A stretch of DNA of 19,869 bases, taken from the NCBI RefSeq assembly GCF_000368145.1, contig NZ_KB849283.1:688455-708323 (forward strand), in the 5' to 3' direction. Below, one piece after another: positions 1-5,933 of this stretch (within the stretch, counting starts at the first letter, position 1; each line of letters starts with the position of its first letter). Made by a program: the position numbers and the translations under genes. The notes beneath the pieces were generated by a model. The model made no database searches and had not been told where the DNA came from. It saw nothing but the letters and a program-made list of their open reading frames with translations. This DNA comes from Acinetobacter guillouiae CIP 63.46. GTDB taxonomy: Bacteria > Pseudomonadota > Gammaproteobacteria > Pseudomonadales > Moraxellaceae.

Positions 1-17
1 TATACATTATACGAAAT
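1..17 (-). other. dif/pdif-like site A, copy 1 (central region plus XerC-type arm; the XerD side lies outside the window)
   Basis: Minus strand reads ATTTCGTATAA-TGTATA. It is identical to 6269..6285. Confidence 0.6.
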
Positions 18-24
18 GGTATAA

Positions 25-357
25 TTATACCTTTGATAACTCAGGAGTTTTTTGATCTTGAGCTTTCTTTTCTTCTAACTGCAATGGCTTACCGTCACCA
101 GTTGTCTTGTAATAAATATTGCGATCCATGGTTGATTGCTCAATCGGCAAATAAATTTCCCGACCACGATAAGACATGTAAAAATCTTTCATATGATGGT
201 GATCTTCAATTACTTTTACGTTCTGTGAACACGGAACCATTTTTTCTAAACCACGGTCATAACGTTCAGATTCGAAGATCAGGCGCATGTTTAGCCCTTT
301 TTCGTTTGTTGATTGTTCAACATTTATAAGTTTTGCTTTGAAGATTAATTGAGACAT
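25..357 (-). CDS. gV-like ssDNA-binding protein (assigned by position), 110 aa
   Basis: It lies immediately downstream of gII. The ATG at 357 follows a GGTG Shine-Dalgarno that overlaps the gII stop (TAAGGTGAATCTCATG). The ORF-track start at 366 is a GTG. I recognise no sequence similarity to Ff gpV. Confidence 0.6.
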   Translation of the reverse strand: MSQLIFKAKLINVEQSTNEKGLNMRLIFESERYDRGLEKMVPCSQNVKVIEDHHHMKDFYMSYRGREIYLPIEQSTMDRNIYYKTTGDGKPLQLEEKKAQDQKTPELSKV

Positions 358-367
358 GAGATTCACC

Positions 368-733
368 TTAAGATACGAGTTTTAATTGACGTTGATTGAA
401 TGTAGAGACAGGCTCTATAAAGTTTGGCGGTACTTGAGTTTCGAAATTGATTTCTACGAGTTTGATAAACGGTATGACGTTGTTTTTAGAGTCAATATGA
501 AGATTCTGTAAATAAGCTTTTGAATAACCAGCAAGAATCAAATCTGCCATTTGTGCAAAGAACTGGGATTTTCCATATTGTTTTTTCATTGCTTCACAGC
601 CATGAATTTCTAAAGCACAATAAAAGTTAAATAGATTCCTTGCCTTAGTTGTACTAACACGACCTGTAGGCGTAACAGTACCAAAGACATTGCACAGAGT
701 TTTAAAGATAGAATCGTGATCAGTAGTTTTCAT
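368..733 (-). CDS. Nested in-frame gene X analogue (C-terminal 121 aa of gpII)
   Basis: The internal ATG at 733 is preceded by GAGG 8 nt upstream (GAGGGTTCAGCCATG). The Met aligns with the gpX start of Ff (ours EGSAM-KTTDHD, f1 EGDSM-NIYDD). Confidence 0.5.
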   Translation of the reverse strand: MKTTDHDSIFKTLCNVFGTVTPTGRVSTTKARNLFNFYCALEIHGCEAMKKQYGKSQFFAQMADLILAGYSKAYLQNLHIDSKNNVIPFIKLVEINFETQVPPNFIEPVSTFNQRQLKLVS

Positions 734-1609
734 GGCTGAACCCTCAAGGGCTTTGAATATTTCAGAATTTGCTTTGACCCATAGGTCTTTTAAAAAATCA
801 GGATTTTCACGTTGGTGGCGTATAAGTTGAAATAAATTCGTTGGTAAACCGAGTTCTTTTAAAACATATTTCTTGATACCGGTTTCAAAGCGTAACAGCC
901 CTTTTGCCCACGCTTGTAAATCAGGATCAGACATAACTTTGACAACACGTAAAGCACATTTATCATTAGCTTTTGATAACTTGATTTGTTCTTCTAGTTG
1001 ATTCTGAAATTCATTAAATTTGCCGTAAACTTTACGTGCATAGCGTTTTGATCGTTCTGAACCGAAATAAATTGTATTCTTATAAACAATCTCTTTTTGT
1101 GATTTACGGATATGTCTTGAAGACATGTTACGCATAAAATCAAGGGCTTGTGCTACTTGGTTTTCATCTTTTAAACGTGCTGAATATGTTGCATCAAGCT
1201 GTAGAACTTCTGTTTCAGAAATACAAAGCATCGAGTAAAGCGTAGGATGTGATTCAGCAAGATAACCAAGCATTTCCATTGCACCTTCTTCAATCCAGTC
1301 AGAACCATAAACATTGTGACCTTGCAGAATCTTTGCTGGTGAAGCCTTGAGTTCAACATGTGGGTAATAACGACCCTCATGAAAGAATTTAAAAGCCATA
1401 GCTGTATGAGATGTGGGTAATCTTTCCCAACCATGATTTAAAACACGATGTTGAGTTTTACCCTCTTCATCTTTGTAGACATCCCAAGAACCAACTTTTT
1501 TAAGATCAAGATCAAGCATGTCAAAACCTAAAATGCAATGATTACCGTCTTCAGTGATATCAACTAAAGAAGCATCAATAGGAATATGCATTACGATTTT
1601 GTCTAACAT
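368..1609 (-). CDS. Rolling-circle replication initiator, Ff gene II protein homologue, 413 aa
   Basis: The start is taken at Met55 of the 467-aa ORF (MLDKIVMHIPID). It shows colinear similarity to f1/M13 gpII as I remember it: YPHVELKASPAKILQGHNVYG vs YPCVEIKASPAKVLQGHNVFG; LDATYSARL vs IDATFSARA; SDPDLQAWAKGLLRFETGIK vs SNPDLLEFASGLVRFEARIK; VIPFIKLVEINF vs VVPLVRFINVDF. Confidence 0.92.
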   Translation of the reverse strand: MLDKIVMHIPIDASLVDITEDGNHCILGFDMLDLDLKKVGSWDVYKDEEGKTQHRVLNHGWERLPTSHTAMAFKFFHEGRYYPHVELKASPAKILQGHNVYGSDWIEEGAMEMLGYLAESHPTLYSMLCISETEVLQLDATYSARLKDENQVAQALDFMRNMSSRHIRKSQKEIVYKNTIYFGSERSKRYARKVYGKFNEFQNQLEEQIKLSKANDKCALRVVKVMSDPDLQAWAKGLLRFETGIKKYVLKELGLPTNLFQLIRHQRENPDFLKDLWVKANSEIFKALEGSAMKTTDHDSIFKTLCNVFGTVTPTGRVSTTKARNLFNFYCALEIHGCEAMKKQYGKSQFFAQMADLILAGYSKAYLQNLHIDSKNNVIPFIKLVEINFETQVPPNFIEPVSTFNQRQLKLVS

Positions 1610-1726
1610 AGCTAATATCCACATGCATGCAAATATGCATAAAGCGGAACTTAACACAAATATGCAAGTATGCGCAATACATGCATGCAAAAATACATGT
1701 ATGATTTTCCACATGTTGATACTGGT
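1610..1726. promoter_or_regulatory. Divergent promoter/operator region between gII and the regulator gene
   Basis: ACATGCATGCAAA occurs twice (1621..1633 and 1679..1691), each containing the palindrome CATGCATG. AAATATGCA occurs twice more. Confidence 0.5.
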
Positions 1727-1927
1727 ATGAAAAAAATGGTTCAAAGCGTTCGAATAAACGATCAAGAGCAAGAAATGCTCAGAAAGAAAGCAGTTGAATT
1801 AAACAAAATTTTAATTCAAAAAGGACAACAGCCATTAAGAGATAGCGAGCTAATACATATTCTTGTAGAAGAAGGTTTAGAGCTATTGGAAGTTAGTAAC
1901 AGCGGTACAGTGAAAATAATAAAGTAA
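1727..1927 (+). CDS. Small ribbon-helix-helix-type transcriptional regulator (candidate phage repressor), 66 aa
   Basis: MKKMVQSVRINDQEQEMLRKKAVELNK...LRDSELIHILVEEGLELLE fits a beta-strand/helix/helix (Arc/CopG/MobC-like) pattern. It is transcribed divergently from gII, in the position RstR occupies in CTXphi. The start could instead be the ATG at 1736. Confidence 0.6.
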   Translation: MKKMVQSVRINDQEQEMLRKKAVELNKILIQKGQQPLRDSELIHILVEEGLELLEVSNSGTVKIIK

Positions 1928-1934
1928 GAAATAG

Positions 1935-1981
1935 TCCGAAATTCCGGAGTTAAGTCCACACTAGAGATGGTGGACTTTTTC
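1935..1981 (-). other. Putative plus-strand origin: nick-site hairpin plus adjacent inverted repeat. May double as terminator of the regulator gene.
   Basis: Hairpin AGTCCAC-N10-GTGGACT spans 1953..1976 and is followed by T5 on the + strand. The stem has the same sequence as the Ff ori hairpin (GAGTCCAC GTTCTTTAATA GTGGACTC). A near-palindrome TCCGAAATTCCGGA (1935..1948) lies 3' of it on the phage coding strand. Confidence 0.5.
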
Positions 1982-2063
1982 AAGTCTGCCCTTTCACTTA
2001 GCTCTGTCCTTCGCCTCCTCCTCCTCGTACCTCGTCGTCGTCGTTGGCGTCCATCACAGAAAG

Positions 2064-2092
2064 AAGTCGCATAATGCGGATTGATGTTAAAT
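2064..2092 (+). other. dif-like site C (attP arm 2), 7-nt central region
   Basis: AAGTCGCATAA-TGCGGAT-TGATGTTAAAT. The XerD-type arm matches TTATGTTAAAT at 10/11. Confidence 0.6.
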
Positions 2093-2163
2093 GCACTGCA
2101 TTTCTTAAAAAAGAAAATGCCATTTTCTGATCGGGAAAATGACATTTTAATAAGGTGCAATGC

Positions 2164-2198
2164 AAGTAACATAATCACGCAGTTACATTATGCGAAAT
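2164..2198 (-). other. dif-like site B (attP arm 1), 13-nt central region, in its phage-phage context
   Basis: Minus strand reads ATTTCGCATAA-TGTAACTGCGTGA-TTATGTTACTT. The XerD-type arm matches at 9/11. The repeat ends exactly at the outer base of the XerC-type arm. Confidence 0.65.
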
Positions 2199-2405
2199 CA
2201 GTCTCTTAATAAAATAATCATATGACAGATACAAAAGGCTAAAAGCAAATGAGCGTAGATAGTAGGCTCACCATCATTATAAAATATTTTAAATACCCAA
2301 TATGGGTCATAATTTATTGTAATATTTTGCCAGTCCATTTCACTACCTATAAAAAATTTCAAAGACTTAAACAAAAATTTCAGATCGGAAGGAAGATAAT
2401 GCCAA

Positions 2406-2585
2406 TCATTCTTCTAGTTCTTTCTGTTGATGAGATTCAATTTCTTCATTTAAAACTAGCTTATGACAAAACCAACAAAACGTATATTTGGCTTCAATTT
2501 TTTTAAGCACTAGTGATGCAGAATACCCACCATCCTCTCTCAATGCCCAATATATCGAATTAAGTTCGTCTAAGTTAAATTCCAT
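2406..2585 (-). CDS. Hypothetical small phage protein, 59 aa (below the ORF-track cutoff)
   Basis: MEFNLDELNSIYWALREDGGYSASLVLKKIEAKYTFCWFCHKLVLNEEIESHQQKELEE. A GGAG lies 8 nt upstream of the ATG. It is on the same strand as all other phage genes. Confidence 0.4.
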   Translation of the reverse strand: MEFNLDELNSIYWALREDGGYSASLVLKKIEAKYTFCWFCHKLVLNEEIESHQQKELEE

Positions 2586-2800
2586 TGCTATTTCTCCAGT
2601 TCGCGCCTACGGACGCTCTATTTCGACCGTTTTAAGTCATATGGGAGCTTGTGATCAGGAAGAAGAATTTCAATGTTTTAATGGATATTCGTCACTCGTA
2701 GACACTCGTTCATCATTCTCCAGTAAAGAAAAATAAACCAGCAAAAATATAAAGTAATACGAGAAGCAAAAACCATATTCTAAGAAAAAAATTAATCATA

Positions 2801-3988
2801 TCAACTCACTACCTGAGCCTGTAATTGGGGTTGTACATCATTATTCGCTATTTCCACCTGTTTGGGAATATCCGATTGAGAAGCTTGTTGAACAGTGTTC
2901 GTACTATTGCTTTGAGTATTGAATTGAGCATTGTTTTGTACCTGTTGGGGAGATTTTGTATAGTCAAACAGTCGTTCACCGTTTAACCATCTTTTACAAT
3001 CAGCTTGTGAAATACTTGGCATTCTGTTGCCCTGTTGATCAAAGGCGTAGTATTTACCATCATATTTAGAACAACCTGTTAACTTAGGATAATCAACAAC
3101 TTGTATTCTTGCTTGTGGTTTAAAATCATAGGGCTTTGAAGAATCATATGTAACAGCACCATCGTTTGTTATAGAAGCGTTGTTTTTAGACATGTCATTA
3201 AACCACTGTACACATTCAGGCTTTTCGACATTCACACCTTTTCTACAATCTTGTTCAAGAACTAGAGGCTGTTGTGTTGCCGAATTGGCTTGTGTTGGAA
3301 TTTCCTGTTTTATGCTTTGTTCTTGCATTGTTTCTTCTTTTTTATCAGGTTGAGATTTTACCCAAAGCCAACCAGTCGCACCGATCACAAGCACAAGCAT
3401 CCAAATTGCATTGATGATCTTCATCGGAATTTTAATTTTACCGTGAGAATCTTCACCACCATTGGAGCTTTTGTACATACCAAACAGGTTTTTAGGATAA
3501 GTAAACGTACCTGAATCCTCTGCATCTGCCTTGGTCGATTTGGTATTAGGGTTGAGTTGATGATATTTCCACATCCACCAAGTCGCCATTTTCATGCCCA
3601 TTGGTCTGTGTAAATGGTAATGCGTTCCCACCATGTCCAATACGTCAACATTCAGCAATCTAGGGGCTTGTGTGATGTAAATAATATCCAAGAAATCAGC
3701 ATGACGATGGGTTTGTAAAAACTCTACTTCCGGATGGTTTTCGTTTTTAACAGGATGTTTGTACTTTTTTGAGAAATGTGAAATCTTTTGCGCTTCATCA
3801 ATCACAACCAATGAACGTGCTGGATAGTCCTCAAATTTGTCTTTGAGCGGTTGTGCAGTATCTAGACGTAAACCATCAATGTTACTAAAAATGTTCCAAG
3901 GGTCAGTTTCATTGACACGTTTAAATATCTCATTCACTGCCCAAAGGGTTTTTCCTGAGCCTGGAGTCGCTGTAATTAAATAAATCAT
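2801..3988 (-). CDS. Zot-like assembly ATPase (gpI homologue), 395 aa
   Basis: Walker A is MIYLITATPGSGKT and Walker B is LVVIDEAQ. There is a single TM segment (AIWMLVLVIGATGWLWV) followed by a Cys- and Gln-rich periplasmic tail. The gene sits after the gVI-like gene, as in Ff. Confidence 0.9.
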   Translation of the reverse strand: MIYLITATPGSGKTLWAVNEIFKRVNETDPWNIFSNIDGLRLDTAQPLKDKFEDYPARSLVVIDEAQKISHFSKKYKHPVKNENHPEVEFLQTHRHADFLDIIYITQAPRLLNVDVLDMVGTHYHLHRPMGMKMATWWMWKYHQLNPNTKSTKADAEDSGTFTYPKNLFGMYKSSNGGEDSHGKIKIPMKIINAIWMLVLVIGATGWLWVKSQPDKKEETMQEQSIKQEIPTQANSATQQPLVLEQDCRKGVNVEKPECVQWFNDMSKNNASITNDGAVTYDSSKPYDFKPQARIQVVDYPKLTGCSKYDGKYYAFDQQGNRMPSISQADCKRWLNGERLFDYTKSPQQVQNNAQFNTQSNSTNTVQQASQSDIPKQVEIANNDVQPQLQAQVVS

Positions 3989-3997
3989 AGTTTCCCC

Positions 3998-4273
3998 TTA
4001 GGCTTTTGAGAACGACATGCTTGTGCTGGTGATCATGGCACGTGCAATAAATGCTGAAATAACAATAGAAATGCACTGATCTAAACCACTTACACCAACG
4101 AGTGAAGCCAAGTCACCCACGATAAAAAAATCACTCATAAAGCGATTAATCAGGTAGTTAATAACACCTAAAATGATGGTTCCCGAAACAAGCGAAATGC
4201 CAGCACCTTTTAATATACGTTTTAGAAACCCATCACCGAAGCTATCAAGTAATTGTTTGAGTAATTTACCCAT
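3998..4273 (-). CDS. gVI-like minor coat/membrane protein, 91 aa
   Basis: Small hydrophobic protein between the gIII-like gene and gI. Its start overlaps the gIII-like stop by 8 nt. Confidence 0.6.
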   Translation of the reverse strand: MGKLLKQLLDSFGDGFLKRILKGAGISLVSGTIILGVINYLINRFMSDFFIVGDLASLVGVSGLDQCISIVISAFIARAMITSTSMSFSKA

Positions 4274-5579
4274 TTCGAGCAGCTCCTATGACAATGTAAG
4301 CAGCATAAAGATATGAACAAGCAACAAGCGCAGGACGAGCAAGAATAAGCACTTGACACAATGGCGTCATATCAAATGAGAAGTTAACGGATACACCAGA
4401 CAAGCTGATTGTGTGTTGTTCAGGAATTGGACATTGTCGTGATACAGCAAAGCGATCTTTTGAGAATATTGATGTGTCAAATTCATCAGGCTTTTTTATT
4501 TCAATATCATTTGAATCATCTTTATCAGGTTGCTCTTTTGTCCAGTCAAACCAGTCCTCTACCTTTTGCCAAAATGTTCTTTCTTTCTCTCGTTGAGCTT
4601 CTTCTTGTTGTCTTGCTATTTCTTCTCGTTGCCAAGCGACTTGTTCAGACTGACGTTGAGCTTCAGCTTGTTTTGAATCTTCTTTATATTTTTTGTACCA
4701 TTCACATACAGTTACAGCCCATGAGCAGAATTCAGGAAGTGTAAAATCTTCACCAACACTCGGTTTTTCAGGGTCGTAAACGTCAGGTTTTCCGTCTCCA
4801 TCCGTGTCCACATTTGGTTTAGGTTTTGTGCTTCCAGTAGGGTCTGTTTCAGGAATTGGAGGAGCATTATCTAAAGCATCTGCTGTAGATTCGGGAGCTT
4901 GACCACCTGCAGGATTATTAGGGTTATATATGTCAGGTAATACTTGTGGTGCTTCAGGTGAATTATTTACTTCATTACCGATTTGGGTTTCTGAAACAGG
5001 GACTAATTCTGTAGATGGTTGATAATTTGGATTTTTATAATAATCATACGGAGTTGGATAAGATACACCATCTTTACGTGTTATTGTACATTGACCCTTC
5101 ATAGTACTCGGATCAACTTTAGTACAACCTCCGATTGAAGCACCGAGCAAATATCCAGCTTGTTGATTCGTTGCTAAATACAAATTAGCAGCGTCTTGTG
5201 CTGATTTACCAATATTTCCACTTACACCGTAAAGATATTCCCAATTCTCAATTGTATTTTTTACAGGCTTTTTAATTACACCGTTATCAATAACCCAGCC
5301 AACACCTTGGATAATTCCGTAAACAACAGCACCTAAAAGTCCTAAACGAGCCATAGAGGCTACTGTTGAACCTGTTGCGCCTGCTGTGACAGGAACACGA
5401 GCTTTATAAAAAGGGTCATTTGATGCAACGGCTGTTGCACGTTTAGCAGTTACATCTATCACTTTTGCGACAGACTCATAGACAACTTTTTCGACTACCC
5501 ATTTTTCAGCGCCTGCAAATGTTAAAGACGGAGTAAGGCATATTGTTAAGGACAATAAAAACACAAGGAATTTTTTCAT
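4266..5579 (-). CDS. gIII-like adsorption/minor coat protein, 437 aa
   Basis: It has a signal peptide (MKKFLVFLLSLTICLTPSLTFA|GA), a Pro/Gly-rich linker, a charged coiled-coil-like stretch and a C-terminal membrane anchor (ALVACSYLYAAYIVIGA). AAGGA lies upstream of the ATG at 5579, with an alternative ATG at 5585. The 499-aa ORF-track version overlaps gVIII and is an artefactual extension. Confidence 0.75.
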   Translation of the reverse strand: MKKFLVFLLSLTICLTPSLTFAGAEKWVVEKVVYESVAKVIDVTAKRATAVASNDPFYKARVPVTAGATGSTVASMARLGLLGAVVYGIIQGVGWVIDNGVIKKPVKNTIENWEYLYGVSGNIGKSAQDAANLYLATNQQAGYLLGASIGGCTKVDPSTMKGQCTITRKDGVSYPTPYDYYKNPNYQPSTELVPVSETQIGNEVNNSPEAPQVLPDIYNPNNPAGGQAPESTADALDNAPPIPETDPTGSTKPKPNVDTDGDGKPDVYDPEKPSVGEDFTLPEFCSWAVTVCEWYKKYKEDSKQAEAQRQSEQVAWQREEIARQQEEAQREKERTFWQKVEDWFDWTKEQPDKDDSNDIEIKKPDEFDTSIFSKDRFAVSRQCPIPEQHTISLSGVSVNFSFDMTPLCQVLILARPALVACSYLYAAYIVIGAARNG

Positions 5580-5659
5580 TTTCATTTCCTTAGCAATAAA
5601 TAAAAACAGACAGACATAAGAATTAAATAGAAGAATCCGAAAGACATTTTTTGATCTCC

Positions 5660-5686
5660 AATAAAAATGGGGAGCGAACTCCCCAA
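5660..5686 (-). terminator. Intrinsic terminator directly after the major coat gene
   Basis: Minus strand reads GGGGAG-TTCG-CTCCCC followed by ATTTTTATT, 7 nt after the gVIII stop. Ff has a terminator in the same position. Confidence 0.8.
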
Positions 5687-5691
5687 GTTTA

Positions 5692-5931
5692 TTAAGTACG
5701 GTTGAACGCTTGTTTGACGTAGCCCCACACTTGAATTGTTGCGTTTGGAATGATCTTTGCAGCACCGATCAAAGCGATAACAGCAACACCAGTAGCAATT
5801 ACAGCAGTACCCGCAGAAACGTCTGGACCCTCAGCAAATGCACTTGTTGAAGCTACAAATGGAGTAGCAACAATCAGAACTTTTTGAGCTAAGTTAAGAC
5901 CTTTTTTTGGAGTTTGGTTTTGATTTTTCAT
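5692..5931 (-). CDS. Major coat protein (gVIII-like) precursor, 79 aa
   Basis: The signal peptide ends at SAFA|EG. The 46-aa mature part has an acidic N-terminus, a hydrophobic core (VIATGVAVIALIGAA) and a basic C-terminus (KQAFNRT). An AAGGT Shine-Dalgarno is present. Confidence 0.85.
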   Translation of the reverse strand: MKNQNQTPKKGLNLAQKVLIVATPFVASTSAFAEGPDVSAGTAVIATGVAVIALIGAAKIIPNATIQVWGYVKQAFNRT

Positions 5932-5933
5932 GA

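Follow-up and report, generated by a model that had tools for sequence, protein, structure and literature searches.

A probable Ff-type plus-strand origin in a filamentous prophage array of Acinetobacter guillouiae

Introduction

Where would replication of the viral strand begin in a temperate filamentous phage of Acinetobacter, and is this site related to the plus-strand origin of the Ff (f1/M13/fd) phages? The question is raised by a stretch of 19,869 nucleotides of Acinetobacter guillouiae CIP 63.46 (contig NZ_KB849283.1, positions 688,455 to 708,323 of the forward strand; the whole stretch is called the window below, and positions are counted from its first letter), in which a sequence-only reading had picked out a hairpin with the stem of the Ff nick hairpin and had proposed it as a candidate plus-strand origin, ori(+).

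In M13 the plus strand is nicked by the initiator gpII between 5780T and 5781A, and Ff gpII joins the nicked 5' end via Tyr197 (PMC5405960). The gpII footprint (5774-5813) lies within domain A of the Ff origin (5769-5819), which is required for initiation and termination alike, domain B being an IHF-dependent enhancer outside the core (PMC5405960). Prophage arrays of the Acinetobacter Af phages are flanked by replication/regulation modules (PMC11209303). The published descriptions of Acinetobacter filamentous phages mention no origin, hairpin or phage attachment site (attP) (PMC11209303, PMC12285184), the record of Acinetobacter phage M02 has no origin annotated, and a literature search with the Ff origin string returned vector sequences only and no comparative origin study.

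Results

The window carries a filamentous prophage array in the Acinetobacter chromosome. The phage genes that are named by Pfam (gpII, Zot/gpI-like and others) all lie on the minus strand, and to the right of 8466 follow ordinary chromosomal genes, including those for a LysR regulator, LrgA/LrgB, an MFS transporter and a tyrosinase. The chromosomal layout is R(1..2198)-U(2199..6268)-R(6269..8466), where R is a 2198-bp module containing a gV-like gene, gene II (gII), a regulator, the putative origin and attP, rather than a whole phage copy. The sequences 1..2198 and 6269..8466 are 100% identical, in agreement with the earlier remark that the candidate origin is present in both repeat copies. 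The genes and the elements of the candidate origin are:

368..1609, minus strand: gene II, rolling-circle initiator of 413 aa (Pfam; 413-aa gene call in the source assembly)
6636..7877, minus strand: gene II, second copy
1727..1927, plus strand: antisense small regulator of 66 aa, divergent from gII (gene call in the source assembly)
7995..8195, plus strand: antisense regulator, second copy
2801..3988, minus strand: Zot/gpI-like ATPase
minus strand: DUF2523 gpVI-like protein, TspB-like adsorption protein and a weak match to the coat protein B family
1952..1977, minus strand (the phage coding strand): predicted nick-site hairpin, left-repeat copy, AAGTCCAC-CATCTCTAGT-GTGGACTT, with an 8-bp stem and a 10-nt loop
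8220..8245, minus strand: predicted nick-site hairpin, right-repeat copy, identical
1935..1948, minus strand: dyad element TCCGGAATTTCGGA (TCCGGAA/TTTCGGA), putative counterpart of the gpII-bound Ff inverted repeat (hairpin E position)
8203..8216, minus strand: dyad element, second copy
1962..1963, minus strand: predicted gpII nick CATCTCT^AGT, between T1963 and A1962 (by homology, +/-1 nt)

A pattern search of the window located AGTCCAC-N10-GTGGACT at 1953..1976, as had been described, and again at 8221..8244. The stem proved to be one base pair longer than described (1952..1977), and the minus-strand loop is the CATCTCTAGT that had been claimed. The near-palindrome pointed out at 1935..1948 is likewise real: it is a dyad of 14 nt with 7-nt arms, no spacer and a single mismatch, located 5 nt 3' of the stem, such that the phage strand reads AAGTCCAC-CATCTCTAGT-GTGGACTT-AAC-TCCGGAATTTCGGA. 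The hairpin is non-coding and lies upstream of gII on the gII coding strand, with 342 nt from its 3' arm to the gII start codon (1609). Folded as single-stranded DNA, the 66-nt segment 1925..1990 that comprises hairpin and dyad has an energy of -9.3 kcal/mol (z = -2.7). Scanning 1..8600 against Rfam (E<=1) produced one chance match, located elsewhere, and thus no known RNA family accounts for the hairpin. A delta-like third repeat (ATTTCGGAC / ATTTCTTAC, 7/9 identical and 10 nt apart, 1924..1932) is a weak candidate whose conservation in the alignment described below (A1) is not clear.

The window gpII matches the Pfam families Phage_CRI (7.4e-45) and G2P_X_C (1.8e-11) and is 34% identical to M13 gpII and 32% identical to IKe gpII. 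Its Tyr195 aligns with the catalytic Tyr197 of M13/f1 inside a conserved block. The protein is Ff-like, as had been stated. We place the gII start at the ATG at 1609; a TTG start at 1771 in the list of open reading frames overlaps the divergent control region.

Comparison with the known origins revealed that the stem AGTCCAC/GTGGACT is identical in the window, M13 and IKe. The M13 origin (NC_003287) reads GAGTCCAC-GTTCTTTAATA-GTGGACTC-TTGTTCCAAACTGGAACA, with the dyad part T-TGTTCCA-AAC-TGGAACA, and the f1 hairpin given in the sequence-only reading matches it accurately. The IKe origin (NC_002014) reads GAGTCCAC-TATGTTTAATA-GTGGACTC-TT-GTTGCA-TTT-TGCAAC, and the IKe record labels the stem-loops 6554-6580 and 6582-6599 as the viral-strand origin. 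As in Ff, the viral-strand loop is pyrimidine-rich and ends in T^A-R-T, the hairpin is followed on its 3' side, after a few bases, by a dyad, and the site lies before gII on the coding strand; the stem, the two-element layout and the position before gII are also shared with IKe. The differences concern the loop, which has 10 nt (CATCTCTAGT) instead of the 11 nt of Ff (GTTCTTTAATA), and the dyad, since TCCGGAATTTCGGA lacks a spacer whereas the M13 dyad is TGTTCCA-AAC-TGGAACA. IKe differs from the window phage in its loop (TATGTTTAATA), in its dyad (GTTGCA-TTT-TGCAAC) and in being non-integrating. An alignment to the Ff, IKe and I2-2 origins had been suggested as a check: M13 and IKe align, but phage I2-2 has no such hairpin, and it was discarded as a comparator, being also absent from the 40 gpII matches listed of 56.

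The mapped M13 nick (5780/5781) is the T^A of CTTT^AATA (positions 381/382 of sequence L001), and its alignment column corresponds to 1963/1962 in the window. Together with the aligned Tyr195, this correspondence leads us to read 1935..1977 as the core plus-strand origin, with a predicted nick position that is uncertain by one base because of the shorter loop. A cognate gpII with its tyrosine, a nick motif in the loop, a dyad 3' of it and a site upstream of gII, by which an Ff-type origin is recognized, are all found at this locus.

The surroundings depart from those of the Ff origin. In Ff the origin is accompanied by the minus-strand origin and the packaging signal in the gene IV-gene II intergenic region, whereas the window origin has an antisense regulator and a dif-like attP as neighbors, because the phage is temperate. 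No match to the IHF consensus WATCAANNNNTTR that would mark an Ff-like domain B was detected within 1800..1935; the GC content 3' of the core (0.27-0.37) is much as in the remaining phage, with no unusually AT-rich block, and the place of domain B is taken by the 3' end of the regulator gene, encoding its C-terminus. As domain B of Ff acts as an enhancer outside the core, its absence is compatible with membership in the family of core origins.

Relatives had to be sought at the protein level, since a megablast of the phage against GenBank phages gave only a 72-nt match to M02, on a dif-like site and not on the origin. A tblastn search with gpII found 56 phage records, with 45% identity for M02 and about 30-39% for the others, a group that includes the Ff group, IKe, Erwinia PEar and inoviruses of Pseudomonas and of saliva/cloaca metagenomes. 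Among the matches listed, the closest gpII relatives are Acinetobacter genomes and M02. The two-part element is present in non-coding DNA upstream of gII in each gpII-match phage retrieved. We then aligned 24 sequences (alignment A1), comprising the window, M13, IKe and 21 other gpII-encoding phages or prophages. M13, IKe, M02, three Pseudomonas-type phages, eight lemur/human saliva inoviruses and ten Acinetobacter prophage contigs have a common anatomy upstream of gII: the loop of the nick hairpin has the form Y-T-Y-T^A/G-R-T, and a dyad begins 0-6 nt downstream of the hairpin. The M02 origin, for example, is GAGTCCAC-GTCTTCTAATG-GTGGACTC followed by the dyad TCCGATATTTCGGA. We also retrieved 13 Acinetobacter loci with gpII, from genome and viral contigs, which fall into identity classes of 78-100%, 55-57% and 45%; the hairpin is present in all 12 with upstream DNA (12/12), with 184-341 nt between it and the point where the gpII match begins.

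In A1, 97.9% of the cells of the 8-bp stem are paired across the 24 sequences, and compensatory double changes occur at 6/8 pairs. This level of pairing and covariation was reached by 0/500 column shuffles, and all slid registers scored lower. Columns free of variation are confined to the two stem pairs next to the loop and to the T-x-T just before the mapped nick of M13. The Pseudomonas phages 42-1, NEU2023 and blackswan219-1 have the hairpin GTCCAC-C(A/T)(T/A)CTCTAATG-GTGGAC, followed by GTCTnA...TnAGAC, and Dulem 60/63 have ATCCAC...GTGGAT. In Dulem 52/57 and D_HF5_61 the stem arms are exchanged, GAGTGGAC-TTCTCTTTAATA-GTCCACTC (GTGGAC...GTCCAC), and Dulem 65 and 62 have unrelated stems, GGCACAC/GTGTGCC and TGTACAC/GTGTACA, with the loops CGCTATCTAATG and ATACTTTAGTA. 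These variant hairpins keep the loop motif CTTT^AATA / TCT^AATG. The arm-swapped or replaced stems are located at:

L014, 3445..3472
L015, 3215..3241
L010, 3595..3619
L005, 1934..1959
L006, 4317..4341

Swapped and alternative stems maintain the pairing and the loop but not the stem sequence, and what matters may therefore be the stem-loop in its extruded or melted form rather than the sequence of the stem as duplex. This suggests that the stem is selected for pairing rather than for duplex sequence, and that gpII-type initiators read the extruded stem-loop by its shape together with the sequence of the loop.

The dyad behaves in a similar manner. A per-sequence search identified a dyad 0-6 nt past the nick hairpin in 24/24 aligned origins; this search replaced a fixed-register dyad structure, which was only 72.9% paired because the symmetry center shifts between clades. 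The arms vary by gpII clade yet remain complementary (TCCG/CGGA, TCCC/GGGA, TGC/GCA, GCTC/GAGC, GTCTCA/TGAGAC and TGTTCCA/TGGAACA), and the Acinetobacter dyads follow gpII identity to the window, with TCCGGAAnnnCGGA at 78% or above, GCTCGAAAATGAGC at 55% and TCCGATATTTCGGA at 45%.

Could the match to the Ff stem be a coincidence, with an inverted repeat arising by chance in AT-rich intergenic sequence? In huge collections the exact pattern of 14 stem bases does occur by chance. A scan of IMG/VR for this pattern gave 82 matches in the loci returned, of which 57 lie in loci without gII and have unrelated loops. The other 25 are in loci with a gII homologue, and here all 25 have a pyrimidine-rich T-Y-T-(A/G)-(A/G)-T loop on the gII strand, with 21 located 348-1200 nt upstream of gII on its strand. 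For the remaining four the gII match is not 0-1200 nt downstream on the same strand, and in two of these contigs gII lies behind the hairpin by more than 6 kb, as a circularly permuted contig would show. Moreover, the pattern did not occur in any of 200 dinucleotide-preserving shuffles of the window, and position, strand, loop motif and downstream dyad all fit the family pattern. Coincidence is effectively refuted by these comparative data, and we give it a negligible probability.

Two of the IMG/VR contigs, L021 (2640..2661 and 4763..4785) and L024 (548..570 and 2642..2663), have a window-type and an M02-type origin together, each variant with its own dif-like pair. These contigs are mixed arrays in which two different filamentous phages occupy one site.

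The hairpin had been described as lying between attP and the antisense regulator, and indeed two inverted dif-like sites are found just upstream of it. The dif-like sites of the array are:

2064..2092, plus strand: dif-like site AAGTCGCATAA-TGCGGA-TTGATGTTAAAT, half of the putative attP (copy at 8332..8360)
2164..2198, minus strand: dif-like site ATTTCGCATAA-TGTAACTGCGTGA-TTATGTTACTT, inverted relative to the first (copy at 8432..8466)
6258..6285, minus strand: third dif-like site ATTTCGTATAA-TGTATA-ATATGTAAATA, located between the gV-like gene and the neighboring gene

The arms match the sequences ACTTCGTATAA, ATTTCGCATAA and TTATGTTAAAT used in A. baumannii XerC/XerD assays (PMC7399989). Folded as single-stranded DNA, the phage strand of 2050..2215 forms an imperfect hairpin of ~130 nt (-30.8 kcal/mol, z = -6.8) in which the XerC-like arms are paired, and this attP-like region has a second copy at 8318..8483. 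The inverted pair occurs in 11/13 related Acinetobacter loci (L017 and L023 gave no match), and in the pair-carrying relatives a dif-like site of the plus-strand type (as at 2064..2092) lies 20-194 nt upstream of the origin. The third site is 88% conserved in M02. At the tip of the attP hairpin, 2114..2148 (minus strand) forms a 14-pair hairpin, AAAATGTCATTTTCC-CGATCAG-AAAATGGCATTTT, followed by CTTTTTT, which could end transcription of the phage operon, signal packaging or act as a minus-strand origin. The segment 1985..2050 between origin and attP is GC-rich (plus strand CCTTCGCCTCCTCCTCCTCGTACCTCGTCGTCGTCGTTGGCG, GC 0.57-0.58, GC skew -0.53) in an otherwise AT-rich phage.

The dense structure of this region raises another possibility, namely that the nick hairpin is a relic or an auxiliary gpII site and that the true plus-strand origin resides elsewhere, for instance in 2050..2215 or 1985..2050. 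The interval 1981..2215 is non-coding and highly structured, and the published accounts of this phage group (PMC11209303, PMC12285184) contain no mapped origins that would speak to the matter. However, a pair of inverted dif-like sites makes up the long hairpin of 2050..2215, for which a role as attP, packaging signal or minus-strand origin is the better explanation. Furthermore, a pattern search detected no other match to the Ff nick motif in the phage sequence, and the nick hairpin with its dyad is the most conserved non-coding feature among phages whose gpII proteins are only 30-35% identical. We therefore regard an origin elsewhere as very improbable.

A further reading takes the hairpin to be, primarily or additionally, an intrinsic terminator of the antisense regulator (1727..1927, plus strand), a role that had also been considered in the sequence-only reading. 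The regulator has no Pfam match. Its TAA is at 1925..1927, and the hairpin thus begins 24 nt past the stop, counted to the 8-bp stem, and not 26 nt past it as reported earlier. On the plus strand the hairpin is followed by GTGGACTTTTTC; the run of five T noted there exists (1976..1980), although its first two T belong to the stem. The hairpin has a stability of about -10.4 kcal/mol as RNA, the nearest relatives (L016, L019, L021 and L023) have 5-7 A before the phage-strand 5' arm, which amount to an antisense T run, and a small antisense ORF ends just beyond the origin, 7-123 nt past the nick hairpin, in 21/21 sequences (the window and 20 relatives). Yet the loop of 10 nt and the three U past the 8-bp stem depart from the 3-8 nt loop and the U tract of at least 5 expected of a terminator. 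The terminator scan did not call the hairpin, calling instead an overlapping alternative at 1969..1990 that lacks a proper U tract, and it is this 1969..1990 hairpin that the minimum-energy RNA fold prefers, with the two energies being near equal (-10.4 vs -10.5 kcal/mol). The T run is also absent from M02, L018, L024b, L027, L028 and the Pseudomonas phages, all of which keep the hairpin, and termination would leave the strand-specific loop motif, the dyad and the identity with the Ff nick site unexplained. The proposed terminator function is in consequence poorly supported, and we consider it unlikely; the hairpin may have a minor accessory role in termination, but termination is not what conserves it.

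Because the antisense ORF is found in all 21 sequences, the order attP - origin - antisense regulator - gII represents a conserved module of temperate gpII-phages. The divergent control region between gII and the regulator (1610..1726) contains many repeated ATGCAT / CATGCATGCAAA motifs, which are probably operators. In L028 (IMGVR_UViG_2065487014_000017) the regulator is nearly identical to that of 1727..1927, with ORFs of equal length and one substitution at otherwise matching ends, whereas the origin is of the M02 type and gpII is 45% identical to the window gpII. This mixture indicates that the regulator and the gII/origin modules recombine independently.

Several observations define the ends of the repeated module. 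The left boundary of R at 6269 (equivalent to window position 1) is the first base of the central region of the third dif-like site, and the junctions 2198/2199 (internal) and 8466/8467 (phage-host) both coincide precisely with the outer edge of the XerC-like arm TTATGCGAAAT. Contig VZOG01000030.1 (assembly GCA_008802215.1) starts at window position 1, in assembly GCA_000414055.1 U (2199..6268) is a separate contig that extends only 39 nt into R per side, and in run DRR015599 the phage is a circular unitig of 6268 nt; these last two data sets agree with the boundaries given here. As the repeat begins at the central region of the third dif-like site, the array is R-U-R, with an RS1-like extra replication module, and not two full phages. 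At the left end of the array we predict that the XerD arm of the host dif, ...ATTTAACATAA, abuts TATACATTATACGAAAT. In L018 (Acinetobacter sp. ANC 4173) positions 5594..5621 are a perfect dif-like site, ATTTCGTATAA-TGTATA-TTATGTTAAAT, which, in phage orientation, is downstream of the origin by ~5 kb, the place expected for a regenerated host dif under the CTX-type model; between the origin and this site lies a second attP-like pair without a recognizable gpII-type hairpin.

Discussion

We conclude that the hairpin and its adjacent dyad very probably constitute the core origin for the plus (viral) strand in a temperate filamentous phage of Acinetobacter. The proposal of an ori(+) is upheld by the gpII family, the loop motif, the dyad, the covariation of the stem, the orientation and the distance to gII, and hairpin and dyad are homologous to domain A of the Ff and IKe origins. 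As judged by sequence comparison, the element is the Acinetobacter counterpart of the well-known Ff-type plus-strand origin, in a phage group whose published descriptions (PMC11209303, PMC12285184) make no mention of origins. For specialists, an Ff-type origin is to be expected once gpII is recognized as Ff-like.

By analogy with Ff, gpII would bind the dyad and flanking DNA on negatively supercoiled duplex, distort or extrude the nick hairpin and cut the phage strand in the loop CATCTCT^AGT (1963/1962), with Tyr195 becoming linked to the 5' end. The free 3'-OH would then prime rolling-circle synthesis toward decreasing window coordinates, and the same origin sequence would act as the signal for termination and circularization. 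What the sequences themselves show is the anatomy of the site with its homology, the covariation, the linkage to gII and the conserved tyrosine, whereas gpII binding, the exact nick position and the use of the two copies are inferred.

The closest parallels in the same host genus are A. baumannii M02/AfM2 and the Af phages (Narancic et al. 2024). The window shares with M02 the module order of inverted dif-like pair, origin, antisense regulator, gII, gV-like gene and dif-like site, and differs from it in gpII (45% identical) and in having a loop and a dyad of another variant.

As an array, the locus looks like CTXphi/RS1 of Vibrio cholerae. CTXphi has two inverted dif-like sites that form a folded attP(+) and undergoes irreversible, XerC-mediated integration, and its virion DNA is made by rolling-circle replication from tandem prophages or from a neighboring RS1 (PMC4246890). 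The inverted dif-like pair of the window, which folds in (+) single-stranded DNA as in the attachment sites of CTX-type IMEX, is a putative attP of this kind, and the sequence layout suggests integration at the XerC side of dif, as for CTXphi. Unlike in CTXphi/RS1, the gV-like gene is also part of the repeated module, whose end is marked by a third dif-like site. By this analogy the phage would integrate irreversibly as folded single-stranded DNA, via the inverted dif-like pair beside the origin. As the two identical origins are in direct orientation and 6268 nt apart, a nick at the right origin (8231/8230) followed by termination at the left one (1963/1962) would set free, without excision, exactly one complete phage genome of 6268 nt, including the junction 2198/2199. 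Taken jointly, two functional origins in a CTXphi/RS1-like array, single-stranded DNA integration, excision-free release and a gpII that reads the extruded stem-loop make up a picture that is possible, if on balance somewhat doubtful.

The analysis provides a plus-strand origin at base level and a predicted nick site for the recently recognized Acinetobacter filamentous phages, whose published descriptions are confined to genes. It also yields a signature by which origins of gpII-family inoviruses may be found, namely a hairpin whose loop reads Y-T-Y-T^R-R-T, located upstream of gII at a distance of about 200-700 nt and with a dyad after it, and the co-variation of the dyad with the gpII clade leads to testable predictions on initiator-origin specificity. 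The covariation of the nick hairpin across the family and the CTXphi/RS1-like organization of the array are the aspects that merit follow-up. These prophages have been linked to biofilm and virulence phenotypes of A. baumannii, and the practical question is whether Acinetobacter prophages of this type produce virions straight from chromosomal arrays, in the manner of CTXphi.
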